Positions 14,585 through 53,981 of a DNA stretch of 64,000 nucleotides are shown in pieces. The DNA is from a virus (Duplodnaviria > Heunggongvirae > Uroviricota > Caudoviricetes): IMG/VR virus record IMGVR_UViG_2974696732_000001; one strand, written 5' to 3'. The position numbers were made by a program, and so were the translations under genes. The notes beneath the pieces are model-generated. The model saw only the letters and a list, made by a program, of their open reading frames with translations, was not told where the DNA came from and ran no database searches. Every line of letters begins with the position of its first letter. The stretch's first letter is position 1.

Positions 14585-15106
14585 ATGACGGTACTTCTAC
14601 GGACAATCCACGGAAGCCATCTGTATGGCCTTGCGCACGCAGGTTCAGACCGAGACATTTACGAAGTAATTGCCACGAAGCGAACCAAGCGAAAGCGCAA
14701 CATTAAGCAGACCATCGTGAATGGAGTTGACAAGACGGTCGTTGACCTCTCAACATTCATGCATATGGTTAATGAATGCGTACCTCAAGCACTTGAAGCG
14801 CTATGGACGCCGGTAGCGGAAGTTGATAAACTTCACGAATTCCGGACACAATATCGAGTGAATCGCGCCAAGATGAAGGAAGTATACATTCGAACCGCTC
14901 TGAACTTCGCCAAGAACGATGGAGTAAAGCAAAAGCGTCACGCTATTCGCCTGCTTCTCAATCTCGGTGCAGCTCTGGAGTATGGTAAATTCAATCCCCA
15001 GCTTTCCAATATGGACAAGTTCATCATAAACTCTTCCATGGGTGAAACTGGAGCATACGAGGATGTCTTCCTAGGCGTCCTTGATGAAGTACAAAAGTGG
15101 GTCTGA
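14585..15106 (+). CDS. putative minimal nucleotidyltransferase (Pol-beta superfamily-like)
   Basis: HGSHLYGLAHAGSDRDIY resembles the GS-x9-13-D-x-D NTase motif. Confidence 0.4.
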   Translation: MTVLLRTIHGSHLYGLAHAGSDRDIYEVIATKRTKRKRNIKQTIVNGVDKTVVDLSTFMHMVNECVPQALEALWTPVAEVDKLHEFRTQYRVNRAKMKEVYIRTALNFAKNDGVKQKRHAIRLLLNLGAALEYGKFNPQLSNMDKFIINSSMGETGAYEDVFLGVLDEVQKWV

Positions 15107-15200
15107 TGGCTCACGCCAATGGGGCGTATACCCTCACTCTGATAAAGTGTAGAAAGGTTAATCGGTTACATGTGGGTTCAATTCCCACCGTCCCAACTGG
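15097..15200 (+). ncRNA. noncanonical tRNA-like element (family member)
   Basis: GTGGGTCTGA..AATCGGTTACA..T-arm GTGGGTTCAATTCCCAC. Overlaps the stop of the upstream gene. Confidence 0.3.
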
Positions 15201-22055: not shown

Positions 22056-22167
22056 GTGGGTCGAAAGAGCAAGTCGGTTATCATCCCTTGAAATGAATGA
22101 ATAGTAGGTTCGACTCCTACATTGGCCAGGGCTAGGCCACCTCCGACTCTCACCAACATATCCACCA
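22056..22167 (+). ncRNA. noncanonical tRNA-like element (family member D with tail CTCTCACCAACATATCCACCA)
   Basis: GTGGGTCGAAAGAGCAAGTCGGTTATC and T-arm GTAGGTTCGACTCCTAC. The 3' ATTGGCC finds no 5' partner. Confidence 0.3.
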
Positions 22168-22936: not shown

Positions 22937-24580
22937 ATGTCTAATGCACTTAACAACGCAGCTAAGGGTCTCAACAAGACTCCTCAGTCTGTCAAGGCCA
23001 AGGCAGGACAGGTCAAGAACAACGCTGGTGGATTCGTCTTCCAGGTTTCTGACCAGGCTCGCCTTGAGCGATTCCTTATCCTTGGTGTTGATGGTGGAAC
23101 CTATTACGTAAAGGAAGCCGACCACGCGCGTTCCAACGTACAGTTCCTCAATGACATGATTGAGCGAGACGAAGCCTCTGTACTGAACACAATCGTTGAT
23201 GTATCTGTCAATGGTCGTGCGTACAAGCAGTCTCCAGTCCTGTTCGCACTAGCCTCTGTCATTGTCCACGGACGTGACAAGCAGTCCGTCAAGGCTGTAT
23301 TTAATCGTGTTGTTCGTACTGGTACACACCTCTACGAGGTTGTGAACTACCTGAACACCATGGGTGGATGGGGTCGAGCAAAGCGTGAAATCGTTGCTAG
23401 TTGGTTCGAGCGCGATGCCGATAAGCTTGCTTACCAGATGGTCAAGTACCGTTCTCGTGAGTTTGCTGGCAACCGTTGGACCATGCGTGACGTAATGCGC
23501 AAGGCTCACCCACAGAACATGAACACTTCCGCTGCTGACTTTGCCCTCGGCAAGGAGCACGATGCTGTTGATGACCTTCGGGTTATTGAGGGTTTCAAGC
23601 TCATGCAGAAAGCTCAGTCTGTTGAAGACGTGCACAATGTTCTTCGGGCGTACGAGATGCTTCCTTGGGAGACTATCCCAACTCAGTTCCTCAAGGATTT
23701 GAGTGTCTGGAAGCGAATCTTCGCCAACGGTCAGCTTCGTGGTCAGGCTCTTGTCCGAAACATCACCCGTCTCGCACGGCTTGGTGCTTTCCAGGACATG
23801 CGTTTTGCTGCTGCTTATGCAGGACAGCTCACGAATCAGGAGATGATTGCGCAGACTCGTCTGCACCCAATCAACTTCCTGAACGCGACTGTTGTGTATA
23901 ACGATGGTCAGCTAAAGCGTGCCAAGGACCGCTGGGGCTACGAGAGTGAGCAGCGCGTAAAGGATTGGACGACTGAAAGTGTCATTGTCGATGCTCTCGA
24001 TGAGGGTTTCCACAAGGCATTCAAGACCGTCCAGCCTGCCGGTAAGCGAACGATGCTTGCTATTGATGTGTCAGGTTCCATGAGTGCAAAGGCTAACGGT
24101 CTCGACCTTAGCTGTGCTCAGGTTTCTGCTGCAATGGCAATGACCATCGCTCGTACCGAGCCAGCTCACATCATCCGTGGATTCACGTCTGATGGCTATG
24201 GTTGGAGGAACAGTGGTCTGACTGACCTCGGCATCTCCGCTCGTACAAACCTTGCTACGGCAATGCGTAATGTACAGCGAAGCAACTGGGGCGGCACAGA
24301 TTGTTCCCTCCCAATGCGTTGGGCTCTTGAGAACAAGGTAGAGGTTGACACCTTCGTGGTTATCACTGATAACGACACGTGGGCTGGCGACGTTCACCCA
24401 TTCCAGGCGCTCAAGGAGTACCGTAAGAAGACCGGAATCGACGCTCGCATGGCAGTTCTGGGAGTTCAGGCAACTGAATTCACCATCGCTGACCCAAGCG
24501 ACCGTGGAATGATGGACTTCGTAGGGTTTGACAGCAATGCACCTCGTGTGCTCGCTGACTTCTCCGCAGGTCGCATCTGA
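22937..24580 (+). CDS. rsr: Ro60/Rsr-like ribonucleoprotein (TROVE domain + vWA)
   Basis: 547 aa with an N-terminal TROVE-like region and a C-terminal vWA MIDAS motif AIDVSGSMS, matching the Ro60 architecture. Confidence 0.65.
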   Translation: MSNALNNAAKGLNKTPQSVKAKAGQVKNNAGGFVFQVSDQARLERFLILGVDGGTYYVKEADHARSNVQFLNDMIERDEASVLNTIVDVSVNGRAYKQSPVLFALASVIVHGRDKQSVKAVFNRVVRTGTHLYEVVNYLNTMGGWGRAKREIVASWFERDADKLAYQMVKYRSREFAGNRWTMRDVMRKAHPQNMNTSAADFALGKEHDAVDDLRVIEGFKLMQKAQSVEDVHNVLRAYEMLPWETIPTQFLKDLSVWKRIFANGQLRGQALVRNITRLARLGAFQDMRFAAAYAGQLTNQEMIAQTRLHPINFLNATVVYNDGQLKRAKDRWGYESEQRVKDWTTESVIVDALDEGFHKAFKTVQPAGKRTMLAIDVSGSMSAKANGLDLSCAQVSAAMAMTIARTEPAHIIRGFTSDGYGWRNSGLTDLGISARTNLATAMRNVQRSNWGGTDCSLPMRWALENKVEVDTFVVITDNDTWAGDVHPFQALKEYRKKTGIDARMAVLGVQATEFTIADPSDRGMMDFVGFDSNAPRVLADFSAGRI

Positions 24581-36488: not shown

Positions 36489-36560
36489 GCATGTAAGCCA
36501 GGGATAAGCTAGGCGGGCCTGTAAAGCCCTACCTCGATGGTTCGAATCCGTCTACATGCA
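36489..36560 (+). tRNA. tRNA with anticodon GTA, type I (second Tyr-type)
   Basis: Acceptor GCATGTA/TACATGC perfect, anticodon loop CTGTAAA, short variable arm. Confidence 0.6.
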
Positions 36561-36621: not shown

Positions 36622-36758
36622 GAACAAGAAGCCCAGCCGAGGGGCAAAGGATATCCTATGGTGGCTGTATCATAAAAGTAATGTACTAGGCTGTGAACCT
36701 AGGTAAGAGGGGGCGGTACCCTCCAGTCACCCCAAGTAGGTCAAAACCTACATCGATG

Positions 36759-42310: not shown

Positions 42311-42426
42311 GTTTGACCCCCCTTGACAACCAGCTTAGCCAAGTGTTAGGCTGGTTGTCTCATGCCGGGGAAGTTCTTTGGTAAGAACAGTCTCTCTATA
42401 GTGTTCATTTGATTGTGCACGGTCTC

Positions 42427-42455
42427 TTGACACCTCCTAGTAGCGCTGCTAGGAT
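42427..42455 (+). promoter_or_regulatory. promoter TTGACA-N17-TAGGAT
   Basis: Followed immediately by the minihelix at 42458. Confidence 0.45.
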
Positions 42456-42457
42456 GA

Positions 42458-42494
42458 CAGAGTAGAAAGGTTGGAGGTTCGATTCCTCCCTCTG
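42458..42494 (+). ncRNA. tRNA minihelix-like element directly downstream of a promoter
   Basis: CAGAG..CTCTG stem enclosing GGAGGTTCGATTCCTCC. Begins about 3 nt after the -10 at 42450-42455. Confidence 0.3.
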
Positions 42495-42590
42495 GCACTT
42501 AATGAAAACTATCAATTCGAAGAGTGGAAGGAGCGTAATGATTTACGACCCTGGTTAGTGTAGTCACTAACTTTGAAGGAGTGAATTATT

Positions 42591-42878: not shown

Positions 42879-43063
42879 TGCAACTCAAGATGTACGCAAT
42901 TGCCTGTGACCAAGCAGAAGCTATCAAAAACTGCTACACAGGCAAGTACACAAATCAACCATTTTGGCCAGAGCACAAAACTCTGGTTCCATATCTAGAA
43001 AAGGCCAGGGAGGAAAACCCTGACCTTCCACTAAAAATCTTTGTCATTAAGGTGAGTGGATAA
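42860..43063 (+). CDS. hypothetical protein
   Basis: 67-aa ORF. Confidence 0.35.
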   Translation: MGRLPLMQLKMYAIACDQAEAIKNCYTGKYTNQPFWPEHKTLVPYLEKAREENPDLPLKIFVIKVSG

Positions 43064-43328
43064 ATTGGCCGGAAACAAGAACAGCCGTAAGAAGTGGCTT
43101 TGCCTTGACTGTGGTGTTGACACTGGCAAGATTGGCGAACACTTCTTTCTCGACATGAAGGTCTGGTCCTTGACAGGGCTTGGGCACGAAGGTATGCTTT
43201 GTGTAGAGCACGTTGAGGAGCGAATCGGCAGGCGTCTTGTTCCGGCCGATTTTACTTCTGCCTACATCAACCGCTTGAACTTCGGGTTCAAGTCTGATAG
43301 GCTCATCTCACGAATCAAGAACAACTAG
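43056..43328 (+). CDS. hypothetical zinc-ribbon protein
   Basis: CLDCGVDTGK..CVEH. Confidence 0.4.
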   Translation: MDKLAGNKNSRKKWLCLDCGVDTGKIGEHFFLDMKVWSLTGLGHEGMLCVEHVEERIGRRLVPADFTSAYINRLNFGFKSDRLISRIKNN

Positions 43329-43336
43329 GAGGACCG

Positions 43337-44434
43337 ATGAAGTTCACCAAGATTTTCTCTCAGGACTTGCTTGACCAGATGGTCAACGAGGGTTTTGTTC
43401 GGGTGCAGACTCATCCGGTTCTCCCTCTGCGAATTCTGAACTACTCTGAGAAGGCTCAGTTTGCGGGTCGATGGAACGCCTGCACGCTTGCGTGCCGTGG
43501 TCTCATCATCGACCAGGACGACAATGTAATTGCTCGTCCTTTCGAGAAGTTCTTCAACATGGGGGACTCTCACGCTGCTGACATCGACTGGGATGCTCCG
43601 GTTGAGGTGACGGACAAGAAGGATGGCTCCATGGGCATCCTTTACTCGATTCGTCCTTACAACCCTGACATGCCGCCTTACGGTCACGAGTACAGCTTTG
43701 CTACCCGTGGTAGTTTTGCTTCTGACCAGGCAATTCACGCTACTAAGCTTTGGCTTGAGCGTTACAAGAACACTGCCGTGCCTCATGACTGGACGTTCAT
43801 TTTCGAGATTGTCTACCCTGACAACCGAATCGTCCTGGATTACGGAGACATGGACGACCTTATCCTTCTGGGTGCGGTCAACAAGGAGCACGGTTACGTG
43901 TACGGTCCTCGTGAGGCTGCGGCTTTGCTGGATTGGCAGGGGCCGGTAACCGAGGTGTTCGATTACAAGAACATTCACGAGGCTGTTGGTGCACCTTACC
44001 GCAGCAACGCTGAGGGTCTTGTTATTCGTTCTGGTGGCAAGATGGTCAAGCTCAAGCAGGCTGATTACATTGAGCTTCATCGACTCATTTCAATGCTTTC
44101 AGAGCGCTCTGTATGGAGTCAGCTCACTGAGGGCAAGACGATTCTGGAGATTTGTGAGGCTCTGCCTGACGAGTTTCACCAGTTCGTCAAGGATGTCGGT
44201 GGCAAGTTGCTCAGTGACTTCGAGCGCATTGAGATTGAGGTGCGTGGAATCTTCCACAACCTTCTTTCTTCAATGGACGAGGGGTTCACTCGACGCGATT
44301 TCGCAATGAAGGCCAACGGAGTTGACCACTACCGCAGCCACATGTTCAACCTGCTTGACGGGAAGGACATCAGTGAGCTAATCTGGAAGCAGTTGAAGCC
44401 CGCAGCCAAGAGTGAGGATGGATACCCGCAGTGA
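43337..44434 (+). CDS. RNA ligase, T4 Rnl1-like
   Basis: ACRGLII and EKFFNMGD match the Rnl1 N-terminal region. Motif I is KKDGSMG (the KxDG lysine adenylylation site). Confidence 0.75.
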   Translation: MKFTKIFSQDLLDQMVNEGFVRVQTHPVLPLRILNYSEKAQFAGRWNACTLACRGLIIDQDDNVIARPFEKFFNMGDSHAADIDWDAPVEVTDKKDGSMGILYSIRPYNPDMPPYGHEYSFATRGSFASDQAIHATKLWLERYKNTAVPHDWTFIFEIVYPDNRIVLDYGDMDDLILLGAVNKEHGYVYGPREAAALLDWQGPVTEVFDYKNIHEAVGAPYRSNAEGLVIRSGGKMVKLKQADYIELHRLISMLSERSVWSQLTEGKTILEICEALPDEFHQFVKDVGGKLLSDFERIEIEVRGIFHNLLSSMDEGFTRRDFAMKANGVDHYRSHMFNLLDGKDISELIWKQLKPAAKSEDGYPQ

Positions 44435-44631
44435 AGCTTTACTTCGTAAGCATCGTTCTGGTAGACGAGCAGAGGCGGGAATACTCTTTCTCGATGACCA
44501 TTCCGGCTACCAGCCGTGAAGCAGCCAAGGCTGCCGTTATCGGAATCGGAATGGAAATCAACGAAGCTACTGGCCACAAGTTGAAGGTCAGTAATGAATC
44601 TCACGCGACAGACACAGGTCGCACAATCTAA
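44431..44631 (+). CDS. hypothetical protein
   Basis: 66-aa ORF. Confidence 0.4.
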   Translation: MKLYFVSIVLVDEQRREYSFSMTIPATSREAAKAAVIGIGMEINEATGHKLKVSNESHATDTGRTI

Positions 44632-44640
44632 GGTGGAAAA

Positions 44641-44778
44641 TTGTCTGACACTACTCGTACTGCCGATGAGGCCGTTTCCAACGCGAAGGTCATTGCGGTT
44701 GCTGTGTGGAGCTGGCTTGCCAGTCATCCTGCGGTGCTTGCCGTTGTGTTCTTCCTGCTTGGCTTCCTCATTGGCTAA
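44641..44778 (+). CDS. small membrane protein (45 aa)
   Basis: Not in the track. TTG start with an AAGGTGGA RBS. Confidence 0.3.
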   Translation: MSDTTRTADEAVSNAKVIAVAVWSWLASHPAVLAVVFFLLGFLIG

Positions 44779-44781
44779 GTC

Positions 44782-44973
44782 ATGAGGAATGTATTTCGGG
44801 CGGCAGCTCAAAAGGCTGTACGTGAAGGTATATGCACACCTGGTATAGGGTGTGGACAACCCATAAGAGAGGAAGACTTCACAGATGATGTTTCTCGTAG
44901 AGAGTCAAAAATCTCAGGTCTCTGCCAGTCCTGTCAAGATAGGGTCTACGCAGACGACCCCGAAGATGGGTGA
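44782..44973 (+). CDS. hypothetical protein
   Basis: 63-aa ORF. Confidence 0.35.
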   Translation: MRNVFRAAAQKAVREGICTPGIGCGQPIREEDFTDDVSRRESKISGLCQSCQDRVYADDPEDG

Positions 44974-45059
44974 AGAAGCATTCAGGTGTTCTGAGTGCCA
45001 GTACCAGTTTCCGTATCATGCGGACAACTGTTCGTACAATATGAACAACAAGTGACACT

Positions 45060-45080
45060 GGGCCCTCCGGGGCCCTTTGT
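45060..45080 (+). terminator. terminator hairpin
   Basis: GGGCCC-TCCG-GGGCCC + TTTGTTG. Confidence 0.5.
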
Positions 45081-45092
45081 TGCGTCTAGGGG

Positions 45093-45121
45093 TTGACACC
45101 ATCCTGGGCATCGACTAGAGT
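45093..45121 (+). promoter_or_regulatory. promoter TTGACA-N17-TAGAGT (pnk)
   Basis: GGGGTTGACACC..TAGAGTAGAGC, consensus family. Confidence 0.6.
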
Positions 45122-45149
45122 AGAGCTAACAACAACGAAGGGAAACAAG

Positions 45150-46055
45150 ATGGCTCAGCTTCTCATCCTCCGGGGCGTTCCTGGATGTGGAAAGTCCACT
45201 TTCGCTCACCAGTGGCTCAAGGAAGGTGAGCGGCGTGCTCGTGTAAACCGTGACGACATCCGTATGCAGTTCTTCGGTAAGGAGACTGGTGTGGATGAAG
45301 ACATGGTTACCAAGATTGAGCACCAGCAGGTAGACATGCTTCTCAAGTCTGGATACTCTGTGGTTGTCGATGACACCAACATCAGGTTCCAGTACATCAC
45401 AGCTTTCGTTAAGATTGCTGCGAAGCATGGCGTGCCTGTTGCAGTAAAGCAGTTCGATGTGGACCTCAAGACTGCCATTGAGCGCAATGCACACCGTGCT
45501 TCTCAGGGTGGTCGTGATGTCCCTACGCACGTCATCGAGAGGATGCACAAGTCTCTCAAGTCTTCTGGTCAGTACACTCGGAAGCACATCGAAGATGCTT
45601 GGGGAACTTCTCAGTCTGTGCAGCCTTACGTTCGGCCAGTAGGCAAGCGAAAGGTTTACCTCTTTGACATTGATGGCACTCTTGCCCAGATGTCTGACAG
45701 GTCTCCTTTTGAGTGGAACAAGGTTGGCAATGACGACCCCCGTCGTCAGGTTGTTCTGACTGCTCAGGCGCTTGCTGAGGCGGGCTACGAGATTGTTGTA
45801 ATGAGCGGTCGAGACTCTGTCTGCCGTGATGAGACAATTGCGTGGCTGGAGTTCTATGACATCCCCTTTGTTGACCTCTTCATGAGGGCAGAGGGTGACA
45901 TGCGTAAGGACAACATCGTTAAGCAGGAGCTGTTTGACAAGCACATTCGTGACTTCTACGATGTTGTGGCCGTCTTTGACGACCGGCAGCAAGTGGTTGA
46001 CATGTGGCGTGCGATGGGCGTAGACTGCTTCCAGGTCGCGCCTGGAGATTTCTGA
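45150..46055 (+). CDS. pnk: polynucleotide 5'-kinase/3'-phosphatase (T4 Pnk-like)
   Basis: P-loop GVPGCGKST kinase plus a HAD phosphatase DIDGTLA..SGR. Start trimmed to ATG 45150, downstream of the promoter at 45093-45121. Confidence 0.8.
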   Translation: MAQLLILRGVPGCGKSTFAHQWLKEGERRARVNRDDIRMQFFGKETGVDEDMVTKIEHQQVDMLLKSGYSVVVDDTNIRFQYITAFVKIAAKHGVPVAVKQFDVDLKTAIERNAHRASQGGRDVPTHVIERMHKSLKSSGQYTRKHIEDAWGTSQSVQPYVRPVGKRKVYLFDIDGTLAQMSDRSPFEWNKVGNDDPRRQVVLTAQALAEAGYEIVVMSGRDSVCRDETIAWLEFYDIPFVDLFMRAEGDMRKDNIVKQELFDKHIRDFYDVVAVFDDRQQVVDMWRAMGVDCFQVAPGDF

Positions 46056-46059
46056 GACT

Positions 46060-46086
46060 GGCGGACCTTCGGGTCCGCCCTTCTTG
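46060..46086 (+). terminator. terminator after pnk
   Basis: GCGGACC-TTCG-GGTCCGC + CCTTCTTG. Confidence 0.5.
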
Positions 46087-46097
46087 GGTAGAAGGGC

Positions 46098-46126
46098 TTG
46101 ACAGCACAGACTGAGCCCGATAGAGT
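46098..46126 (+). promoter_or_regulatory. promoter TTGACA-N17-TAGAGT
   Basis: Upstream of the lipoprotein gene at 46163. Confidence 0.6.
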
Positions 46127-46162
46127 AGTACCAACAACAACGACGAAGGGTCGAAACAAATA

Positions 46163-46639
46163 ATGCGTTCCAACATCCTGGTTCCGGTCGTCCTCGCTGG
46201 TTCAGTGGTTGGTGCTCTGGCACTGACTGGCTGTGCCAATGAGCCGAGTGACGGCTTCAAGGACCGATGCAAGAAGGCTGGCGGTACCATCGAGCGTGAG
46301 AACGACAATACGCTCGGAATGGCTCCTATGGCTTTCTCAAAGCCCGGTGTGCCTGCTCCGCCTAAGCCTGCGGCTCCTGCTGCTAAGGCTCCGACTGCGC
46401 CGAAGGCACCGAAGGTCGAGATTCCCAAGACTCCGAAGCTTCCGAAGAACGACGCTCCGAAGTCTGTGAAGACTCCTTCTGCTCCTCGCACGCCTTCAAA
46501 GGTGAACCCTACCTCTGGAAACGGCCTGGCGCTGGGAAGTGTCACAAAGGGAAAGACCAAGAAGAAGAAGTCAAAGCACGATGACAATGACTTCCTCTGC
46601 GTCAAGGACGGCGAGCTGCTGTTCGAAGAGGATGAGTGA
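46163..46639 (+). CDS. Pro/Ala/Lys-rich lipoprotein
   Basis: Signal peptide with an LTGC lipobox, then low-complexity PKxP repeats. Confidence 0.5.
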   Translation: MRSNILVPVVLAGSVVGALALTGCANEPSDGFKDRCKKAGGTIERENDNTLGMAPMAFSKPGVPAPPKPAAPAAKAPTAPKAPKVEIPKTPKLPKNDAPKSVKTPSAPRTPSKVNPTSGNGLALGSVTKGKTKKKKSKHDDNDFLCVKDGELLFEEDE

Positions 46640-46679
46640 TTGACAGAGTGCGTGCCTTAGTGATAAACTAAGTGCACAA

Positions 46680-46761
46680 GCGCCCATGGTGGAATGGTAG
46701 ACACACTGGACTGAGACTCCAGGCTCGAATGAGCGTCCGGGTTCGACTCCCGGTGGGCGTA
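46680..46761 (+). tRNA. tRNA-Leu(GAG), type II
   Basis: Anticodon stem CTGGA/TCCAG with loop CTGAGAC, variable-arm hairpin GCTCGAATGAGC, T-arm CCGGGTTCGACTCCCGG. Confidence 0.75.
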
Positions 46762-46768
46762 CGTGAAG

Positions 46769-46960
46769 ATGGGAAGCAGAATTCAGGTCAAATATTTCGT
46801 TGACACGAAGACCATGACCGACTATTCTGGCAAGAAAGGTCAGGCGCTCACAAGAGAGCGCGGTGGTAAGTGGGGAGTAAGGATTGATGGTCGAGAAGGG
46901 CCCAATCTAATCATCCCTGAAAGTCAGCTCAAGGAAGTTTCCTGGGAAGAAGGAGAATAA
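46769..46960 (+). CDS. hypothetical protein
   Basis: ORF 46763..; KOW-like. Confidence 0.4.
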   Translation: MGSRIQVKYFVDTKTMTDYSGKKGQALTRERGGKWGVRIDGREGPNLIIPESQLKEVSWEEGE

Positions 46961-46961
46961 A

Positions 46962-47192
46962 TTGCCTGACATGCCTTACATGGAACGAGTCGGACGACAG
47001 TTCGTCTCTGACATGACCGAGGTTCTGACTGGTATCGAACGAATAAATACTCTTCGAGCGGTGGCAAAGCCTACCAATCGAGAGAAGGCTGATAAGTATC
47101 TCAAGCTGTACACTGAGCAGAATCTTCCGCCAAAGACCATGGCGGAGTGGCGAGTGCTCCGTGACGGAATGATTAAAAGGCTTCGAGGCTGA
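46962..47192 (+). CDS. hypothetical protein
   Basis: 76-aa ORF. Confidence 0.4.
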   Translation: MPDMPYMERVGRQFVSDMTEVLTGIERINTLRAVAKPTNREKADKYLKLYTEQNLPPKTMAEWRVLRDGMIKRLRG

Positions 47193-47199
47193 GGCCCCA

Positions 47200-47270
47200 A
47201 CCCGCTTAGCTCAATGGTAGAGCGCTTGCTCGACACGCAAGAGACGTGAGTTCAATTCTCTCAGTGGGTA
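47200..47270 (+). tRNA. tRNA-Val(GAC)
   Basis: GCTCAATGGTAGAGC D-arm, anticodon stem CTTGC/GCAAG with loop TCGACAC. Confidence 0.7.
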
Positions 47271-47290
47271 CTCCCAAGGTAAGGAATGAA

Positions 47291-47491
47291 ATGGCTCTAG
47301 GTGATGCGGTGCAAATTGCGATGGCGAGCTACCAGCTTGTCTATCCTGATGCACCATATGAGTGGCTTGAGAAGGCTGCTAAGGAAACGCTCTATTGGAG
47401 CGCTCGGGTAACCAACCCGACTCTTGAGCAAATGGAAGCTCACGAGGCTCGTGTCCGTCACATGTGTACGACTGGAGAGTGGAATGTTTGA
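47291..47491 (+). CDS. hypothetical protein
   Basis: Trimmed from 47246 to clear tRNA-Val. Confidence 0.4.
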   Translation: MALGDAVQIAMASYQLVYPDAPYEWLEKAAKETLYWSARVTNPTLEQMEAHEARVRHMCTTGEWNV

Positions 47492-47687
47492 CAGTGATAG
47501 CGTCAAGGTTGGGATTCTGGTTCTGCTAGGATTCCTTGGCTTCGTCTTCGCCATCTCTGGCGGAATCGTTGCCAACACTTACCTTGAGAATCAGAAGGTA
47601 AGTAAGTGTATCTCTGCAAACAAGATTTGGGCAGAGGGTGCATGTGTGAACAACATCAACGAACTTCGGTACGTTGACAACGACTGA
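47484..47687 (+). CDS. small membrane protein
   Basis: Trimmed to the internal ATG; one TM helix. Confidence 0.35.
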   Translation: MFDSDSVKVGILVLLGFLGFVFAISGGIVANTYLENQKVSKCISANKIWAEGACVNNINELRYVDND

Positions 47688-47700
47688 CTTGTCAGTCCCT

Positions 47701-47776
47701 GGCTCTGTAGCAGAATTTGGTATATGCGCTGGTCTCAAAAACCGGGTCAATGCGGGTTCGAGTCCCGTCAGGGCTA
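47701..47776 (+). tRNA. tRNA with anticodon CAA (Leu-type anticodon, short variable arm)
   Basis: Acceptor GGCTCTG/CAGGGCT, anticodon stem CTGGT/ACCGG with loop CTCAAAA, T-arm GCGGGTTCGAGTCCCGT. Confidence 0.55.
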
Positions 47777-47777
47777 C

Positions 47778-48002
47778 ATGGAATATCAACTATCAGAGGC
47801 TCCAGAAGGTTATACCTGGGAGCTACAGACGACAGATGGTCCGTTCATGGGCACAGAAGGCGTGAACTACGAGCTGAACCTTTCAAAGAATGGAAGGGTC
47901 GTAGATACACGAGGAGTGTTTGTTCCAAAGGCGAAAGAGGCAGATACAGTCTCTTTCATCAAGGCTATGGAGCAGAGCATTCGAATGAGCCTCGATAACT
48001 GA
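47778..48002 (+). CDS. hypothetical protein
   Basis: Trimmed from 47724 to clear a tRNA. Confidence 0.4.
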   Translation: MEYQLSEAPEGYTWELQTTDGPFMGTEGVNYELNLSKNGRVVDTRGVFVPKAKEADTVSFIKAMEQSIRMSLDN

Positions 48003-48010
48003 GGCTTTAT

Positions 48011-48093
48011 GGAAGGTGAGCGAGAGGTCTCGCAGGTAGTTTGCTAAACTGCTGGGCTGTAAAAGGTTCGGGGTTCGAATCCTCCTCCTTCCG
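48011..48093 (+). tRNA. tRNA-Ser(GCT), type II
   Basis: D-stem GCG/CGC, anticodon stem GTAGT/ACTGC with loop TTGCTAA, long variable arm, T-loop TTCGAAT. Confidence 0.7.
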
Positions 48094-48110
48094 CATAGTA
48101 TAATAACCAT

Positions 48111-48419
48111 ATGGAAATCAATAAGCACAGAAAAGAGGGGAGCTTCGTCAGGCGTCACAGCTTGTCGCTAGCTCTCCTCTTTGTTTTTCTGGTTCAATGT
48201 GTCATTGTATGGTTCACTGGTTATTCAGACTGGAGAGCCGACCAACTGATACAGCACGCATCTGTTGCCATCTGGCCAGACTACCTGATACACTGGGTCT
48301 ACGAGATGGCAGTAAGCTTGGTTGCAGACACCTATGGTGCATTGCTTCTAGTGCTGTTTGCCAAATGGTTTTATGAAAAGGGTAGCCCAGAGAGCGGAGA
48401 TGAAAATGACTCTGATTAA
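48111..48419 (+). CDS. membrane protein
   Basis: 102 aa, hydrophobic. Confidence 0.45.
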   Translation: MEINKHRKEGSFVRRHSLSLALLFVFLVQCVIVWFTGYSDWRADQLIQHASVAIWPDYLIHWVYEMAVSLVADTYGALLLVLFAKWFYEKGSPESGDENDSD

Positions 48420-48606
48420 TTGTTCTCAGTGTGGCGCTCGAATGGCAGAGGACGACTACATGGAAGATGGTGTATGCGGCCTCTGCCTTCTTGTTGCTAT
48501 TACTGAGGAGCTGGGACTTTATGACGACCGAGGAGGTGTAAATGAAGAAGAAGTGGATTTCGCCCGGAACCAGACTGATGGACCGAGCGTACATGAGGGA
48601 CCGTAG
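48406..48606 (+). CDS. zinc-ribbon protein
   Basis: CSQCG..CGLC. Confidence 0.35.
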   Translation: MTLINCSQCGARMAEDDYMEDGVCGLCLLVAITEELGLYDDRGGVNEEEVDFARNQTDGPSVHEGP

Positions 48607-48740
48607 TGGAAATGTACATACGGGAGAAGCCCTCCTGCTAGCCCTGCTACTACATGCAAAGGGCAAGACGAAGCGTAGTCAGGATGAACTGACTGACGTT
48701 AGCAAGATTATGAAGGACAGAAACCTACCAAAGGAGAAGC

Positions 48741-49100
48741 GTGGCAACGGGCGAAGGGCCAGTCGAGGTAACCAGGCTTGAGTGGCATTACCTTGAACTG
48801 CAAGAGTTTGTAAAGAATCTCTGGGGCGTAGAATGGGAGGGTGGAGCTGCAATGGGCTTCCCTGCTCAAGATACGTATTACGATGTCGAAGTAGACTATG
48901 GCGTCCAAGAAGGTGACGAACTCAAACTATGGATTGATGACTACACCTTCGAAGAAGCCAAGGCAGCTATTGAAAAGTTCAAGGCTGAGGGTATGCCTCG
49001 TGAAGAGTATGCCGAGCCTGGCGCTCAACTTCTGCTTAATTGGCTAAGCTACGAGGGGCACATTCCTGCTGGCAATTACCGCATTTTGGTGTGGTGGTAA
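48741..49100 (+). CDS. hypothetical protein
   Basis: 119-aa ORF. Confidence 0.45.
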   Translation: MATGEGPVEVTRLEWHYLELQEFVKNLWGVEWEGGAAMGFPAQDTYYDVEVDYGVQEGDELKLWIDDYTFEEAKAAIEKFKAEGMPREEYAEPGAQLLLNWLSYEGHIPAGNYRILVWW

Positions 49101-49357
49101 TGGGCTGGGCAGGAGGAACAAGCTACTTTGACGGACCTCTAGACCTCATGCTAGAGTATGTCCCAGAAGACAAGCGCAAGGAAGTCATTGAGAAGCTGTA
49201 CCGCACCATCAGAGATGGTGACTGGGATACAGTGGATGAGTCTTCCTACTTCAACTTGCTTGTGAAGTATGATATTGATGGGTATGGTGAATACAAAACC
49301 GACCCTGACTATCTTGCTGAACTCACAGAAGAAGAATTGGCAGAGCTAAATGACTAA
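49100..49357 (+). CDS. hypothetical protein
   Basis: Trimmed from 49040. Confidence 0.4.
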   Translation: MGWAGGTSYFDGPLDLMLEYVPEDKRKEVIEKLYRTIRDGDWDTVDESSYFNLLVKYDIDGYGEYKTDPDYLAELTEEELAELND

Positions 49358-49661
49358 CTATGTACAGCAGATTAAGGACGCTCTCAAAGAGTTGCATCCA
49401 CGGATGGACTCAGAGCTGCTTGACGTGTATGCTTTGCTTGTGCTGGTAAAAGGAGAGGACGTTACTCTTAAGGACGTTCACGATGCGTGGTCAGTCTGGA
49501 AGAATAACACCCGTCCAGACCACCGTTCATTGATTGAATTCGATGAATTGACTCCAGAAGTACAGGCTCTTGACCAGAAGTATGCTGACAGCATCAGACT
49601 GGTTGCAAAAATCAAGGAGGCTGTGAGTGCGTACAAGGCAAAGGAATCTGGCACGCTGTAG
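49350..49661 (+). CDS. hypothetical protein
   Basis: 103-aa ORF. Confidence 0.45.
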   Translation: MTNYVQQIKDALKELHPRMDSELLDVYALLVLVKGEDVTLKDVHDAWSVWKNNTRPDHRSLIEFDELTPEVQALDQKYADSIRLVAKIKEAVSAYKAKESGTL

Positions 49662-50029
49662 ATGTGGGAGGCCAATTCTTATTGGCCACCTGCGCAAGTA
49701 CAACGGCAATGACATCAAACTTTGCCCGGCATGTAATGCTGAGGCCATGATTGAGGAGATTAGGAATCGTGACAGGTCCGAGGGCCTTGACAGCACTGAT
49801 TCTGACGGGTACGATTCTTAACATAGTGTTCCTCGCACTCGCTGCACAGGCAATTAATAGCACGATAGAAGAAATCGGCAATGACATACAGCGAAATGCG
49901 TGTAGACATGCGAATCCGGAACTTGAAGACTGGTCTCAAAGCGACTATTGCAACCCTTGAAAAGGGTAAGTTTCGGATTGTAGATGAGAACGGTCATGTA
50001 GAAGATTTCGACCGGTACGATGCCGGAGA

Positions 50030-50437
50030 ATGGGAAAAGATACAGTAATGGGATTCTGGTCAGCAGTCAAGGATATCAAGACCATCGTGGCTCTTGAGGA
50101 GGCTGCCAAGAAGAATGACAGTGCTGCTCGCTACCTGGTGAATGTTCAGGAGTGGGACTGTTTCGAAGACCTCGTTCAGGAGTGGAAGCGTTATTTCGAG
50201 CAGTATGCTCGTAAGAACAAGGTGAAGCCTGCCGACCTCCAATTCGGAGGAAGTGTATTCGATTCAGCAATGAATCTGGATGGCTCTACTCCACCTGCCA
50301 AGCGAAGTGGTGGAAACGCAACCGCTCGTGCAAAGTATCTTTGTGATAAGTACGGTCGTGGTGATGGGCCTTCCTTCGGTGCCGCAATGGCTGAGGGCCT
50401 GCACCTTGCCAAGGGTGGCCGTAGCAACTACAGGTGA
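50030..50437 (+). CDS. hypothetical protein
   Basis: 135-aa ORF. Confidence 0.45.
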   Translation: MGKDTVMGFWSAVKDIKTIVALEEAAKKNDSAARYLVNVQEWDCFEDLVQEWKRYFEQYARKNKVKPADLQFGGSVFDSAMNLDGSTPPAKRSGGNATARAKYLCDKYGRGDGPSFGAAMAEGLHLAKGGRSNYR

Positions 50438-50443
50438 GTTGAC

Positions 50444-50683
50444 ATGACTGACATGAAGCGATACGATGTGATGGTTCGGGTTGAGTTCACCTGGGAAAAT
50501 GAATACGGTGATGAACGAACAACCTGGGCCACAAACATCGGTCAGTATACGTCAAACAATCCTGACTCACTGCCTGAGTACGTGGCAGCACACCACATAA
50601 AGTTTGAACCTCCTGGAGGGGAAAACGTAAGGCGAGTGCTGTTCTCAGAAATCACACAATATACTCTCAACGAGGTGGACTAA
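50444..50683 (+). CDS. hypothetical protein
   Basis: 79-aa ORF. Confidence 0.45.
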   Translation: MTDMKRYDVMVRVEFTWENEYGDERTTWATNIGQYTSNNPDSLPEYVAAHHIKFEPPGGENVRRVLFSEITQYTLNEVD

Positions 50684-50702
50684 TGTTCAAAGGAGAAGCT
50701 TA

Positions 50703-50733
50703 CCGGTCTTTCTAACAAAGACCGGGCTTTTCT
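50703..50733 (+). terminator. rho-independent terminator
   Basis: CCGGTCTTT-CTAAC-AAAGACCGG + GCTTTTCTG. Confidence 0.6.
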
Positions 50734-50743
50734 GTCTCTAGCC

Positions 50744-51058
50744 ATGGAACTTAGTTTGAAGAGTAACATGAAGCAGAGGCATGGAGCTGTCGTAGTAAAG
50801 GGAGGTCGAGTCCTCTCACGTGGCTGGAACATATTGAAGAATGACCCGAACAACGTGAGCCACGAACACATTACCCGTTTTTGCTCGGTACATGCTGAGC
50901 GCATGGCGCTGGCACGCTGCAAGAACGCTGTTGGTGCTACTGTTTACGTGGCACGAAACAAGTCCGGCAGAGCATGTCACTCCAAGCCTTGTGATGCATG
51001 TCATGCTGCTCTCGAAGCGGCCGGTGTTGCAAGGGTTGTGTACACGACTGGGCTCTGA
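50744..51058 (+). CDS. cytidine/deoxycytidylate deaminase-like zinc enzyme
   Basis: HAERMAL and PCDACHAAL form the CDA-fold zinc ligand pattern H(A/C)E...PCxxC. Confidence 0.6.
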   Translation: MELSLKSNMKQRHGAVVVKGGRVLSRGWNILKNDPNNVSHEHITRFCSVHAERMALARCKNAVGATVYVARNKSGRACHSKPCDACHAALEAAGVARVVYTTGL

Positions 51059-51104
51059 TAGACTCAACTACGTAAGCGGCTCACAACTACCAAGGAGATG
51101 AATC

Positions 51105-53015
51105 ATGGAGCCTACTGCTATTTACGCCGAGCGCAAGGGTAACCTTGCTGGTGAGACCGTCGCAATGAGCGTTGATGCTGCAAGCATGGCGCACGTCATG
51201 AGCATCCTGACCGACCTCTATTCAGACCCTGTTCTGGCTGTCATTCGGGAATACAGCACCAATGCCTTTGACTCTCACGTTGAGGCTGGTGTCAGTAAGC
51301 CCATCGAGGTCTCTCTTCCCAATGCAATGTCTCCCTTCTTCAAGGTTCGAGACTACGGTGTTGGACTGTCTGTTGAAGACATTCGCAATGTCTATTCCAA
51401 GTACGGTGCTTCCACCAAGCGTTCCACCAATGAGCAGGTTGGTATGCTTGGCCTGGGATGCAAGTCTGCATTGACCTACACTCAGCAGTTCACTGTTCGT
51501 TCTGTCAAGGATGGGCAGATGGCTCACGTTGCCATTTCTCGTACTGAGGATGGCTCTGGTGTCATGCAGGTTGTTCACACTCAGGAGGTGGACGAGCCGA
51601 ATGGTGTGGAGATTTCTGTTCCTGTCCACCGTCAGAACGATTTCGAATGGAAGGCCAAGGAATTCTTCAAGTTCTGGGAGCCTGGCACCGTTCTGATTGA
51701 TGGTGTTGAGCCTGCCCGATTTGATGGTCTCAAGCTGAGCGAGAACATCACCCTTGTTGAAGGCAGCAATACGGATTACATTGTCATGGGCAATGTTGGC
51801 TATCGAGTCAGCAATGAACATACTCTGTATCGACCCCAGAATGGCTATTACTACAGCCGTAACTTTGGCATCATTGCCAAGGTTGCCATTGGTTCTGTGA
51901 ACTTCACGCCTTCTCGTGAAGACCTTCACTACACCGAGCACACTTTGAAGACGCTTGAGGGTGTTCGTGAGGAAATCAAGAATGCTTTCGTTGACACCAT
52001 TCAGGCTGCCGTTGATGCAAAGCCTGACCACCCTTCTGCTCGTGCTGAGTGGGAGAAGTGGCGTCAGCTTTCTGGCCTCAATCAGGATGCCATCACCTAC
52101 AAGGGTGAGCGCATTCCGACTGAAATTTCTCAGCCTCACATTCGGTACCGACAGGACTACGGCCGGAATTCTGTGAATTTTCATCACAGCATTCGTTTCA
52201 ATGAGGTCAGTCGATACGTCCTTATTAGCGGATATGAAGGAGAGCCCTCTACTGCTCACCGTGCCAAGATGCGTCTGTGGGCAGAGCAGAACAATGTAAG
52301 GCTTGGTGGCTTCATCATTACCAAGTCTGTCATTGAGCAGAAGTGGTTTAAGGCCGAGCACTCTGTCACGTGGGAAGAGGTTTTTGCTACAAAGAAGCCT
52401 CGTGTTCCTCGTACAGAGTCTGTTGAAACTTTCTCTGTCCTGTCTTCTGGTCAGCGCTATGCGCAGATGCAGCGAATCGCTGACCTTGACAAGACGAAGA
52501 CCATCATCGTATGGTCTAATGGTGACGACAGGTACGAGGACGTGATTGGCCAGATTGTCAGGCTTCACGGCAATGCACATGCTGTTCGTCTTCCCAAGAA
52601 TCGCTGGGACAAGTTCCTGCGTGAGAACGCAAATGCGGTAAAGGTTGATGACGCAGTTTCCTCCATGGTTAAGAAGGCTTTTGACAAGCTCTCTGACGAT
52701 GAAAAGCTGAGCATGAGCATCGACTACTACGACCGTGGTACGCTGATGCGACTCGATGCCAAGCGCATTGACGACCCTGAGCTTGCGCGGTACACTAGGG
52801 TGGTACAGAGCATCCGCAAGTCAGACGCTATCGACAACTTCAACGAGATTGTCGGCGTCTGCTCTCGACTGCACATCGACCGTCCTACGGTTGACAAGGT
52901 GGAGAGTCCCAAGGTAAAGTATCCTCTACTGGCTGCGGTTGACAGCGCGCTTGGTCTTGCGGCCGAGCATTTCTACCTCTACGCAAACACTCTCTACTCC
53001 AAGGAGAACAACTAA
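51105..53015 (+). CDS. rIIA: rIIA-like protein (N-terminal GHKL ATPase)
   Basis: Bergerat-fold N box EYSTNAFDS and G1 box DYGVGL. 636 aa, immediately followed by a gene of about 320 aa, as in T4 rIIA-rIIB. Confidence 0.5.
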   Translation: MEPTAIYAERKGNLAGETVAMSVDAASMAHVMSILTDLYSDPVLAVIREYSTNAFDSHVEAGVSKPIEVSLPNAMSPFFKVRDYGVGLSVEDIRNVYSKYGASTKRSTNEQVGMLGLGCKSALTYTQQFTVRSVKDGQMAHVAISRTEDGSGVMQVVHTQEVDEPNGVEISVPVHRQNDFEWKAKEFFKFWEPGTVLIDGVEPARFDGLKLSENITLVEGSNTDYIVMGNVGYRVSNEHTLYRPQNGYYYSRNFGIIAKVAIGSVNFTPSREDLHYTEHTLKTLEGVREEIKNAFVDTIQAAVDAKPDHPSARAEWEKWRQLSGLNQDAITYKGERIPTEISQPHIRYRQDYGRNSVNFHHSIRFNEVSRYVLISGYEGEPSTAHRAKMRLWAEQNNVRLGGFIITKSVIEQKWFKAEHSVTWEEVFATKKPRVPRTESVETFSVLSSGQRYAQMQRIADLDKTKTIIVWSNGDDRYEDVIGQIVRLHGNAHAVRLPKNRWDKFLRENANAVKVDDAVSSMVKKAFDKLSDDEKLSMSIDYYDRGTLMRLDAKRIDDPELARYTRVVQSIRKSDAIDNFNEIVGVCSRLHIDRPTVDKVESPKVKYPLLAAVDSALGLAAEHFYLYANTLYSKENN

Positions 53016-53981
53016 ATGTCCAACCTCCAGTACAGCCTGATTCGCAACTCTGGTGGAGAGGTCATCACCGTTTTCGCAAACGGCGAGATGTACTCTGCAC
53101 TGGATACTCACCCGAACTGGGCTGGCATCAAGGCTGGTGCCGAGGCTGATGACCCTACGGTCATTGACCTTTTCGACATCGGCCGTACTGCTCAGATTCG
53201 CTTCGAGCGTCTTTCTGAGCGAGTCACTGTTCGAAATGGCAAGGTTCACTGGGACAACGTTCCTGTGCATTCTGCCCTGACCGAGCAGGTTGTCCGATTC
53301 ATCGAGAATGGCCAGGAAGACTTCGGTCCTCTCGTCGCCTTCTTCGAGAAGATTCAGACGAACGAGAACGAGCATAGCCGTGAGCAGCTTTTCGACTGGC
53401 TCAAGATTCATGACTTCACGATTCTTCCCAACGGTAACTTCATTGGTTACAAGGGTGTTCGTGTAGTTGGTGACTCTTACGAGAGCATCAGCCACGGTAC
53501 TGCAATCAGCAATGATGTGGAGTACACTGGTGCCATTCCTAACCCGATTGGTGCTGTCGTGGAGATGCCTCGTGACCAGGTTCAGCATGACCCTGCCGTG
53601 GGGTGCCACGCTGGTCTGCATGTTGGTACCTGGGAGTACGCCTCTGGGTTCGCTCAGGGTGCTGTGCTCAAGGTCGAGGTGAATCCTCGTGACGTTGTTT
53701 CTGTTCCTACCGATTGCGGTTGGCAGAAGCTTCGTACCTGCCGATACACTGTTCTTGAGGTCATTGACGCTCCTGTTGATGGTCCTCTGGACATGGACCC
53801 TGCGATTGCCGATGATGGCGGTCAGGCTCTTTGGGCGGAAGCTGAGGAGCACTACGCTGACATGGCTGCGCAGAGCACCAATCCCATCGTGAAGACGATG
53901 GCTGGAGTGGTCGATACCCGTTTCAACCACCTTCGTCAGAAGCGTGATGCAAACGGCCGATTCATTCCTAAGAGCAAGTGA
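53016..53981 (+). CDS. rIIB: rIIB-like protein
   Basis: Called from size and position after the rIIA-like gene; no motif. Confidence 0.4.
   Translation: MSNLQYSLIRNSGGEVITVFANGEMYSALDTHPNWAGIKAGAEADDPTVIDLFDIGRTAQIRFERLSERVTVRNGKVHWDNVPVHSALTEQVVRFIENGQEDFGPLVAFFEKIQTNENEHSREQLFDWLKIHDFTILPNGNFIGYKGVRVVGDSYESISHGTAISNDVEYTGAIPNPIGAVVEMPRDQVQHDPAVGCHAGLHVGTWEYASGFAQGAVLKVEVNPRDVVSVPTDCGWQKLRTCRYTVLEVIDAPVDGPLDMDPAIADDGGQALWAEAEEHYADMAAQSTNPIVKTMAGVVDTRFNHLRQKRDANGRFIPKSK

Follow-up and report, generated by a model that had tools for sequence, protein, structure and literature searches.

An Rnl1-like RNA ligase and a T4-type polynucleotide kinase/phosphatase within the tRNA array of Streptomyces phage Paradiddles

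Introduction

In bacteriophage T4, which carries 8 tRNAs, RnlA (RNA ligase 1, Rnl1; gp63) and PseT (a polynucleotide kinase/phosphatase, Pnkp) repair tRNA-Lys and thereby counter the anticodon nuclease PrrC. Enzymes of the same types, with the same domain orders, are encoded between positions 43,337 and 46,055 of a 64,000-nucleotide stretch of Caudoviricetes DNA (IMG/VR record IMGVR_UViG_2974696732_000001), which was analyzed at its full length and is referred to here as the window. The two genes, both on the + strand, encode an Rnl1-like ATP-dependent RNA ligase, gp186 (365 aa; 43337-44434; 'RNA ligase' in GenBank), and a T4-type polynucleotide 5'-kinase/3'-phosphatase, gp190 (301 aa; 45150-46055; 'polynucleotide kinase' in GenBank). 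The source of the window is Streptomyces phage Paradiddles (MF347637.1/NC_042010.1; 133,486 bp; Stanwilliamsviridae, Samistivirus), to which positions 43000-46300 are 100% identical by megablast, and window coordinates are those of the phage record minus 58,707. Paradiddles is unlike T4 in its actinobacterial host, for which no trigger or nuclease of the Stp/PrrC type is known, and in its tRNA load of about 46 tRNAs plus a transfer-messenger RNA (tmRNA).

Several other described systems are close to this locus. Among actinobacteriophages, a T4-type Pnkp and an RNA ligase occur in mycobacteriophages Omega and Cjw1 (Zhu, Yin and Shuman 2004, cited in PMC5511906) and in the cluster E phage CrystalP (genes 87 and 90). 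Such enzymes have been 'implicated in tRNA repair' and, together with phage tRNAs, possibly counter host defences (PMC5511906). The likeness of these phages to Paradiddles is one of description, and unlike Paradiddles they have small genomes and about 2 tRNAs. Large phages encode broader toolkits composed of tRNAs, ligases of the Rnl1, Rnl2 or RtcB type, PNK-HAD enzymes, RlaP and, in some, a TROVE/Ro protein with a tRNA-like partner RNA, and these have been read as protecting the translation apparatus from attack by the host (Iyer et al. 2021, PMC7824862). Paradiddles holds each component type of this toolkit but, at 133 kb, is below the jumbo range, and its parts are spread over about 30 kb instead of forming a single operon. 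The view that phages both replace and repair tRNAs is the published standard for large phages and actinophages (PMC7824862, PMC5511906), and phage tRNAs as an escape from tRNA-targeting defences are established (PMC10264068).

Two cellular systems are also comparable. The Pnkp1-Rnl-Hen1 complex of Capnocytophaga gingivalis (4xrp/4xru; PMC4411300) likewise partners a kinase and HAD phosphatase with a separate RNA ligase, and its Pnkp1 is the best solved-structure sequence match to gp190. In contrast, the ligase of the complex is not among the PDB matches of gp186, and no Hen1 methyltransferase occurs in the annotation of positions 57744-133486 of the Paradiddles record. RNA ligase families are distinguished by the domains joined to a nucleotidyltransferase core (PMC6379707), and the ligase domain of fungal Trl1 (Rnl6 clade) resembles gp186 in its Rnl1-type adenylyltransferase, including the N-terminal sub-domain. 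Trl1 differs in having another C-terminal domain, a requirement for a 2'-phosphate end, and a fused kinase and cyclic phosphodiesterase (PMC6379707). Both the annotation of the Paradiddles genes and their tRNA-repair interpretation are already known; the observation of the pair is correct and, in that respect, ordinary.

Results

The genes for gp186 and gp190 sit inside a tRNA array, with 43 tRNA and tmRNA calls made by ARAGORN across the window. A total of 92 Streptomyces phage records match this region, and both gene names appear in 25 of the 25 BE-type records listed. A preliminary description, made from the letters of the window and its open reading frames (ORFs), had recognized a T4-type repair pair here by a handful of motifs. 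All of these are present in the translations, with LACRGLIID, EKFFNMGDS and DKKDGSM in gp186 and RGVPGCGKSTF and FDIDGTLAQ in gp190, and both ORFs lie on the + strand at the positions it gave.

For both proteins the database matches are much stronger than chance would give. The assignment of gp186 to the Rnl1 family is supported by profile, alignment and structural comparisons. The Pfam RNA ligase profile that the preliminary description had proposed as a check, PF09511, matches gp186 at E 3.5e-15 (56.9 bits, cut-off 28.3), phrog_562 matches at E 5e-85, and the best sequence match among solved structures is T4 Rnl1 (PDB 2c5u, E 4e-11), to which gp186 is 27-31% identical. A profile alignment to T4 RnlA with hhalign covers residues 30-268 (probability 99.4%, E 2.4e-21). 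The AlphaFold2 model of gp186 (pLDDT 91) has three T4 Rnl1 entries as its best fold matches in the PDB (E 4e-18), and the next match is the Candida glabrata ligase domain Trl1-LIG (E 1.6e-08).

Residues were compared by aligning the T4 rnlA and pseT sequences from AF158101 with the Paradiddles proteins, with the roles of the catalytic residues in Rnl1 and Pnkp taken from PMC2831316, PMC3592404 and PMC6379707. Of the 12 T4 Rnl1 residues checked, 11 are identical in gp186: R54, K71, F73, K94, D96 and G97 correspond to T4 R54, K75, F77, K99, D101 and G102, and E157, E226, G227, K238 and K240 to T4 E159, E227, G228, K240 and K242. The remaining residue, T4 K119, is conservatively replaced by R124, and in 61 homologues, the most distant of which is 46% identical, none of the checked positions varies, R124 included. 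Motifs I, III, IV and V of the covalent nucleotidyltransferases are all present, with K94 of the KxDG motif as the motif I lysine and predicted AMP acceptor. The Rnl1-type N-terminal sub-domain is likewise kept through R54, K71 and F73, the last of which aligns with T4 Phe77, a residue that contributes to ATP binding. Arg54, Lys75 and the neighbouring Phe76 of T4 Rnl1 do so as well (PMC6379707).

The likeness to T4 is closer for gp190, which carries an N-terminal P-loop kinase and a C-terminal DxDxT HAD phosphatase on one polypeptide and aligns end to end with T4 PseT (301 aa each, 39% identity). The preliminary description had also proposed profile searches for both domains, and both give strong matches, to AAA_33 for the kinase (PF13671; E 6e-25, 88.6 bits, cut-off 27) and to HAD_PNKP for the phosphatase (PF25109; E 2.9e-52, 177 bits, cut-off 27.6). 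The protein further matches phrog_505 (E 1.3e-106) and, in the PDB, Capnocytophaga Pnkp1 (4xrp, E 7e-46) and T4 Pnkp (1ltq, E 3e-44). All 17 of the T4 Pnkp residues checked are conserved. In the kinase these are K15, S16, D35, R38, E50, D75 and R116 (T4 K15, S16, D35, R38, E57, D85 and R126), and in the phosphatase D173, D175, T177, R184 and S219 (T4 D165, D167, T169, R176 and S211) together with R221, D254, K258, D277 and D278 (T4 R213, D254, K258, D277 and D278). They include the residues reported for the T4 Pnkp kinase (Lys15, Ser16, Asp35, Arg38, Asp85 and Arg126; PMC2831316) and for the acylphosphatase domain of T4-type Pnkp (Asp165, Asp167, Ser211, Lys258 and Asp278; PMC3592404). Enzymes of this type are homotetramers and act on RNA ends with a 2',3'-cyclic phosphate. 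The motif I lysine of the ligase and the DxDGT residues of the phosphatase, whose loss the preliminary description had named as evidence against its assignment, are thus kept as K94, D173 and D175. Since the catalytic residues are kept in both gp186 and gp190, both enzymes are predicted to be catalytically competent.

The start of gp190 was considered separately. The longest kinase ORF opens at a TTG at 45093 (320 aa); this start was rejected because the TTG is part of a promoter-like site, in its -35 box, and the alignment with T4 Pnkp begins at the ATG at 45150. By this alignment the start of gp190 is ATG 45150, as annotated, and it is preceded by a GAAGGGA ribosome-binding site.

We infer that gp190 and gp186 form a T4-style pathway of RNA healing and sealing. 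The pathway would begin when a ribonuclease cuts an RNA, the most plausible case being a tRNA whose anticodon loop is cleaved by a nuclease of a host defence or toxin. The HAD phosphatase of gp190 would then take off the cyclic or 3' phosphate, with D173 as nucleophile, D175 as acid-base catalyst, and S219, K258 and D278 binding phosphate and Mg, and its P-loop kinase would phosphorylate the 5'-OH by means of K15, S16, D35, R38 and R116. Finally, gp186 would adenylylate itself on K94, transfer the AMP to the 5' phosphate and seal the break. Together with the phage's own tRNAs and tmRNA, the repair pair could keep translation running during infection. We regard such a cleaved tRNA as the probable substrate, though not with high confidence. 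The preliminary description had gone on to suggest that the phage both replaces and repairs tRNAs and hence that its host uses tRNA-targeting defence; its identification of the enzymes is borne out, and the host-defence step remains something we infer.

The association of the two genes extends over many genomes. It was followed in 80 loci from a ligase-profile scan of viral contigs and in 80 further loci from a scan of bacteria with one genome per species. A Pnkp gene lies within 5 kb of the ligase in 46 of the 80 viral loci at E <=1e-5 and in 50 at E <=1e-3 (39 full-length, 9 kinase-only and 2 phosphatase-only), and in 45 loci it is downstream of the ligase on the same strand, with gaps of 9-1379 nt. 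Genes for tRNAs or tmRNA occur within 5 kb of 49 of the 80 viral ligases, which supports the reading that the phages both replace and repair tRNAs. Bacterial ligases are accompanied by Pnkp still more often, at a distance of no more than 5 kb in 72 of the 80 loci and as a rule 3-90 nt downstream. The bacterial loci (e.g. L113:6915-7529) belong mostly to Actinomycetota (Dactylosporangium, Actinoplanes, Micromonospora, Streptosporangium, Arthrobacter and one Streptomyces), and their ligases are 40-48% identical to the phage ligase. Judged by these sequences, the ligase-Pnkp unit is an old, mobile two-gene cassette.

The surroundings of the bacterial cassettes are heterogeneous, with genes for a helicase-methylase and for a LuxR/STAND regulator as well as one for a second RNA ligase. 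The last of these, a PF09414 protein, is encoded directly downstream of Pnkp in Actinoplanes utahensis. In Dactylosporangium, the cassette occupies a similar chromosomal position in several complete genomes. A nuclease or toxin beside the bacterial cassettes was sought with Pfam among the neighbours in five genomes, and the results were unrelated or empty.

In Paradiddles itself, gp186 and gp190 are not adjacent. They are separated by 716 nt and three small annotated ORFs on the + strand, gp187 (44431-44631), gp188 (44641-44778) and gp189 (44885-45055), which match only PHROG families of unknown function. In most other loci Pnkp comes straight after the ligase, at a distance of 3-90 nt, so that these intervening ORFs look like insertions specific to the phage group of Paradiddles. 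The cassette has become looser in this phage. It should be noted that two ORFs here, at 44782-44973 and 44885-45055 (+), overlap by 89 nt in different frames, and only the second is annotated in Paradiddles (gp189). The two match different PHROG families (E 2e-42 and 2e-41), and both contain Cys pairs that would suit a zinc ribbon; one of the two families may rest on mis-called genes.

The wider gene order is nonetheless like that of T4, running in both phages from the ligase through small ORFs to Pnkp and through further small ORFs to dCMP deaminase. The comparison covers 43337-53981 of the window and 132388-141317 of T4; the Paradiddles dCMP deaminase is at 50756-51058 and is followed by rIIA-like and rIIB-like genes (51105-53981). 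This shared order could be chance or ancient synteny.

A consensus scan placed promoter-like sites on the + strand before each of the two genes. TTGACA-17-TATGCT at 43170-43198 is 139 nt upstream of the ligase start, and TTGACA-17-TAGAGT at 45093-45121 is 29 nt upstream of the pnk start. Between gp189 and the latter site is a terminator-like GC hairpin with a T-rich tail (45060-45075, +), a call that rests on its position and 6 G-C pairs, the count of terminators in the region being not above chance. The window holds 61 copies of the pattern TTGACN-N16-18-TANNNT on the + strand and 2 on the - strand, which suggests that sigma-70-like promoters are densely spaced over the tRNA region. TAGAGT, followed by AGT, is a frequent form of the -10 element, and many of the sites stand immediately before tRNA genes and small ORFs. 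As judged from motif and strand, these sites are very probably genuine promoters that the host polymerase reads, and gp186 and gp190 probably have separate ones.

The separate promoter-like sites suggest independent expression, and in this respect they favor separate roles outside RNA metabolism, with Pnkp processing DNA ends and the ligase serving as a tail-fibre attachment factor. T4 Pnkp acts on DNA ends too, T4 gp63 has a second, non-catalytic activity in tail-fibre attachment, and both RefSeq and PHROG name the ligase 'RNA ligase and tail fiber protein attachment catalyst'. That name was transferred from T4 via phrog_562, without phage-specific evidence, and tail-fibre attachment was rejected on this ground and because the cassette is also found in bacterial chromosomes, which have no tail fibres. 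Further, the genes are tightly linked in many genomes (45 of the 80 viral loci and 72 of the 80 bacterial ones), which speaks for a shared function, and all of the catalytic residues of the ligase are under conservation. Separate non-RNA roles are therefore scarcely credible, and joint repair of RNA remains the preferred reading.

An additional element of the array is a tRNA-like RNA of 134 nt, unannotated in Paradiddles, at 42364-42497 (+), 0.84 kb upstream of the ligase. The Rfam tRNA model matches it end to end (32.8 bits) and is the only Rfam family that matches. Its acceptor stem, D arm and T arm (GGTTCGATTCC) are canonical, no CCA is encoded, and 72 nt stand where the anticodon loop would be. 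In minimum-free-energy folds, a covarying 7-bp stem in this insert closes a three-way junction. The two hairpins of the junction are one whose UGCA loop falls within an invariant GUGCAC and a near-invariant CUAGUAGCGCUGCUAG. The acceptor stem, both arms and the two internal hairpins are retained in 11 distinct copies from related phages. In the alignment of these copies, itself fitted to the model, 97% of cells are paired and compensatory changes occur at 16 of 31 pairs, compared with 6.7 +/- 1.6 in shuffles and <=5 in slid controls. A promoter-like site (42323-42352) ends 12 nt upstream of the RNA. An internal TTGACA...TAGGAT was rejected as the cause of conservation, the -35 box being lost in Targaryen, Naboo and Coruscant while the helices covary; on this pattern of change, it is structure and not a promoter that explains the conservation. 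The RNA itself is thus well supported by covariation, and its tie to the repair enzymes is unproven.

The position of this RNA raises the question of whether the pair serves the phage's own RNA biogenesis, joining or healing phage tRNAs, the tmRNA or the 134-nt RNA, for example after endonucleolytic processing or a splicing-like step. The location of gp186 and gp190 inside the tRNA array favors such a role, as does the conserved RNA just upstream, with its own promoter-like site and its 72 nt in place of an anticodon loop, and the intron mode of ARAGORN reads the copy in phage Anedea as an intron-containing tRNA. That intron model fits only 1 of 5 copies, however, and the insert is a covarying three-way junction with neither a 7-nt anticodon loop nor a bulge-helix-bulge motif, so that an intron-containing tRNA in need of splicing by the pair was judged unlikely. 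The other tRNA genes are called uninterrupted, no splicing endonuclease was seen, the element is absent from more distant ligase loci, and the bacterial cassettes have no such RNA context. Taken together, a role in the phage's own RNA biogenesis is very unlikely, and repair of RNA cut by a nuclease is the reading carried forward.

A YrlA-type Y RNA identity is doubtful for the 134-nt RNA, which has no GNCGAA(N)G Ro-binding motif and whose acceptor stem is open-ended, unlike the loop-closed stem of YrlA (PMC4201824). A second, sequence-unrelated allele occupies the same position between the same flanking genes in other phages (L006:386-514 in Mildred21, L012:3673-3800, L015:3810-3938 and L016:3493-3620). 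It is ~128 nt long, with a 7-bp acceptor stem and a T arm but without a D arm, and is labelled 'tRNA-OTHER' in Mildred21. A gene for a HIT (histidine-triad) nucleotide-binding protein is inserted directly after the tRNA-like RNA, upstream of the ligase region, in some relatives, among them Anedea (L008:488-832) and Evy (L094:38-499). The annotated HIT coding sequence of Evy overlaps the RNA element (L094:3-139), and its start codon is therefore probably wrong.

Two other genes of the window may have accessory roles in RNA repair or surveillance. The product of gp102 (14585-15106, +) is a Pol-beta nucleotidyltransferase that resembles RlaP, an RNA ligase-associated enzyme that adds 1-2 nucleotides to damaged RNA 3' ends (PMC12776372). 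Its match to the RlaP profile PF10127 is borderline (26.1 bits, cut-off 23) and covers only the N-terminal half of the profile, and its GenBank name, 'nucleotidyltransferase', does not reflect the likeness. The product of gp120 (22937-24580, +) is a Ro60/Rsr homologue with TROVE and vWA domains (PF05731, PF25045), which scores 451 bits against the NCBIfam Rsr model, below the equivalog cut-off of 900.

Several tRNA-like elements are also found near these genes and elsewhere in the array. Directly downstream of gp102, an unannotated element at 15120-15196 (+) reaches 30.8 bits with Rfam (gathering score 29) and was not called by ARAGORN on the window. It combines an acceptor stem and a T arm with an anticodon-like stem-loop and an 18-nt extra arm, and has only 4 nt in place of the D arm. 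About 0.8 kb upstream of gp120, the 'tRNA-Ser(tga)' of the record (22059-22128, +) is likewise uncalled by ARAGORN, reaches 13.8 bits with Rfam, and has an acceptor-like stem and a T arm. It begins GUCGAAAG, which fits GNCGAA(N)G, the Ro-binding motif of bacterial Y RNAs (PMC4201824), and because of this start it could be a Y-RNA-like partner rather than a tRNA. The Rfam search found no Y RNA near the Ro gene gp120. Further, tRNA-Tyr and tRNA-His genes annotated at 36489-36560 and 36661-36734 (+) were missed by ARAGORN; with Rfam scores of 32.0 and 40.0 bits, they are low-scoring duplicates of neighbouring tRNA genes.

Discussion

The proposed repair of tRNAs cut by host nucleases has a plausible setting in that RloC anticodon nucleases are recorded in Actinobacteria (5/54 genomes; PMC2610378). 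Several observations weigh against it, beginning with the part of the ligase on which substrate choice would depend. T4 Rnl1 owes its specificity for breaks in the tRNA anticodon loop to its C-terminal domain (PMC6379707). The corresponding region of gp186 follows an adenylyltransferase domain of about residues 1-242 and is an all-helical domain of residues 243-358. Modelled alone, residues 243-365 are again all helical (pLDDT 91), and a Foldseek search of this model against the PDB gave no match. The C-terminal domains of gp186 and T4 Rnl1 align only marginally (BLASTP E 0.013, hhalign E 0.034), on the basis of a collinear R-(K/R)-x-(F/Y)-A-M-x-A motif, and the significant part of the whole-protein profile alignment with T4 RnlA ends at residue 268. 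The T4 RnlA equivalog model TIGR02308 is the only NCBIfam family matched by gp186 and is collinear over residues 31-340, but its score of 67.3 bits is below the cut-off of 242.25. With this weak C-terminal likeness and sub-cut-off score, tRNA specificity is not simply transferable from T4. We read gp186 as a divergent member of the Rnl1 family, whose C-terminal domain is probably homologous to that of T4 Rnl1, and for which a substrate preference cannot be assumed.

The remaining points of this kind concern the genomic context. Only 5 of the 80 bacterial loci have tRNA genes within 5 kb, so it is the phage copies that go with tRNA arrays, and the module is not intrinsically tied to such arrays. 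Co-transcription of gp186 and gp190 is doubtful in view of the terminator-like hairpin that follows gp189 and the separate promoter-like site that precedes pnk. Additionally, a phage with a full set of tRNAs may need tRNA repair less.

The main rival that gains from these observations is a broad-spectrum RNA repair system, which would reseal any RNA cut by metal-independent RNases and would not be specific for tRNA. The cutters could include HEPN toxins, CRISPR-associated RNases and toxins that cleave rRNA, mRNA or tmRNA, and the pair would work with the RlaP-like nucleotidyltransferase and the Ro60 homologue of the same window. The divergence of the gp186 C-terminal specificity domain from that of T4 Rnl1 is in keeping with such a system, as are the presence of both partner genes in the window and the multi-component RNA repair kits described for large phages (PMC7824862). 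The bacterial chromosomes that carry the cassette away from tRNA genes point the same way, as does the second RNA ligase downstream of Pnkp in one bacterial locus. Set against this, the one notable structural match of the gp186 C-terminal domain, and its best, is still T4 Rnl1, viral copies are strongly tied to tRNA arrays, and the RlaP match is not only borderline but belongs to a gene 28 kb away. Broad-spectrum repair is possible on this balance, if rather unlikely, and repair of tRNAs cut in the anticodon loop is retained as the preferred reading.

A wider arrangement may also be considered, in which the ligase and Pnkp belong to a larger RNA repair and surveillance kit with gp102, gp120 and the previously undescribed 134-nt RNA. 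The last of these could then be a Y-RNA-like scaffold or a decoy for tRNA-targeting nucleases, and the kit would parallel the rsr-yrlBA-rtcBA RNA repair operon of Salmonella. We consider such a kit doubtful.

The identification of the pair is a correct call of a textbook system in an annotated phage, and as a finding in itself it adds little. The greater worth is in its by-products, namely an unannotated, covarying family of tRNA-like RNAs and a cassette that is widespread in actinobacterial chromosomes. The BE-type phages of Streptomyces combine a full tRNA complement, a tmRNA, an RNA ligase, a Pnkp, an RlaP-like enzyme and a Ro60 homologue, and this set makes them a tractable place for seeking tRNA- or RNA-targeting defences in Streptomyces.

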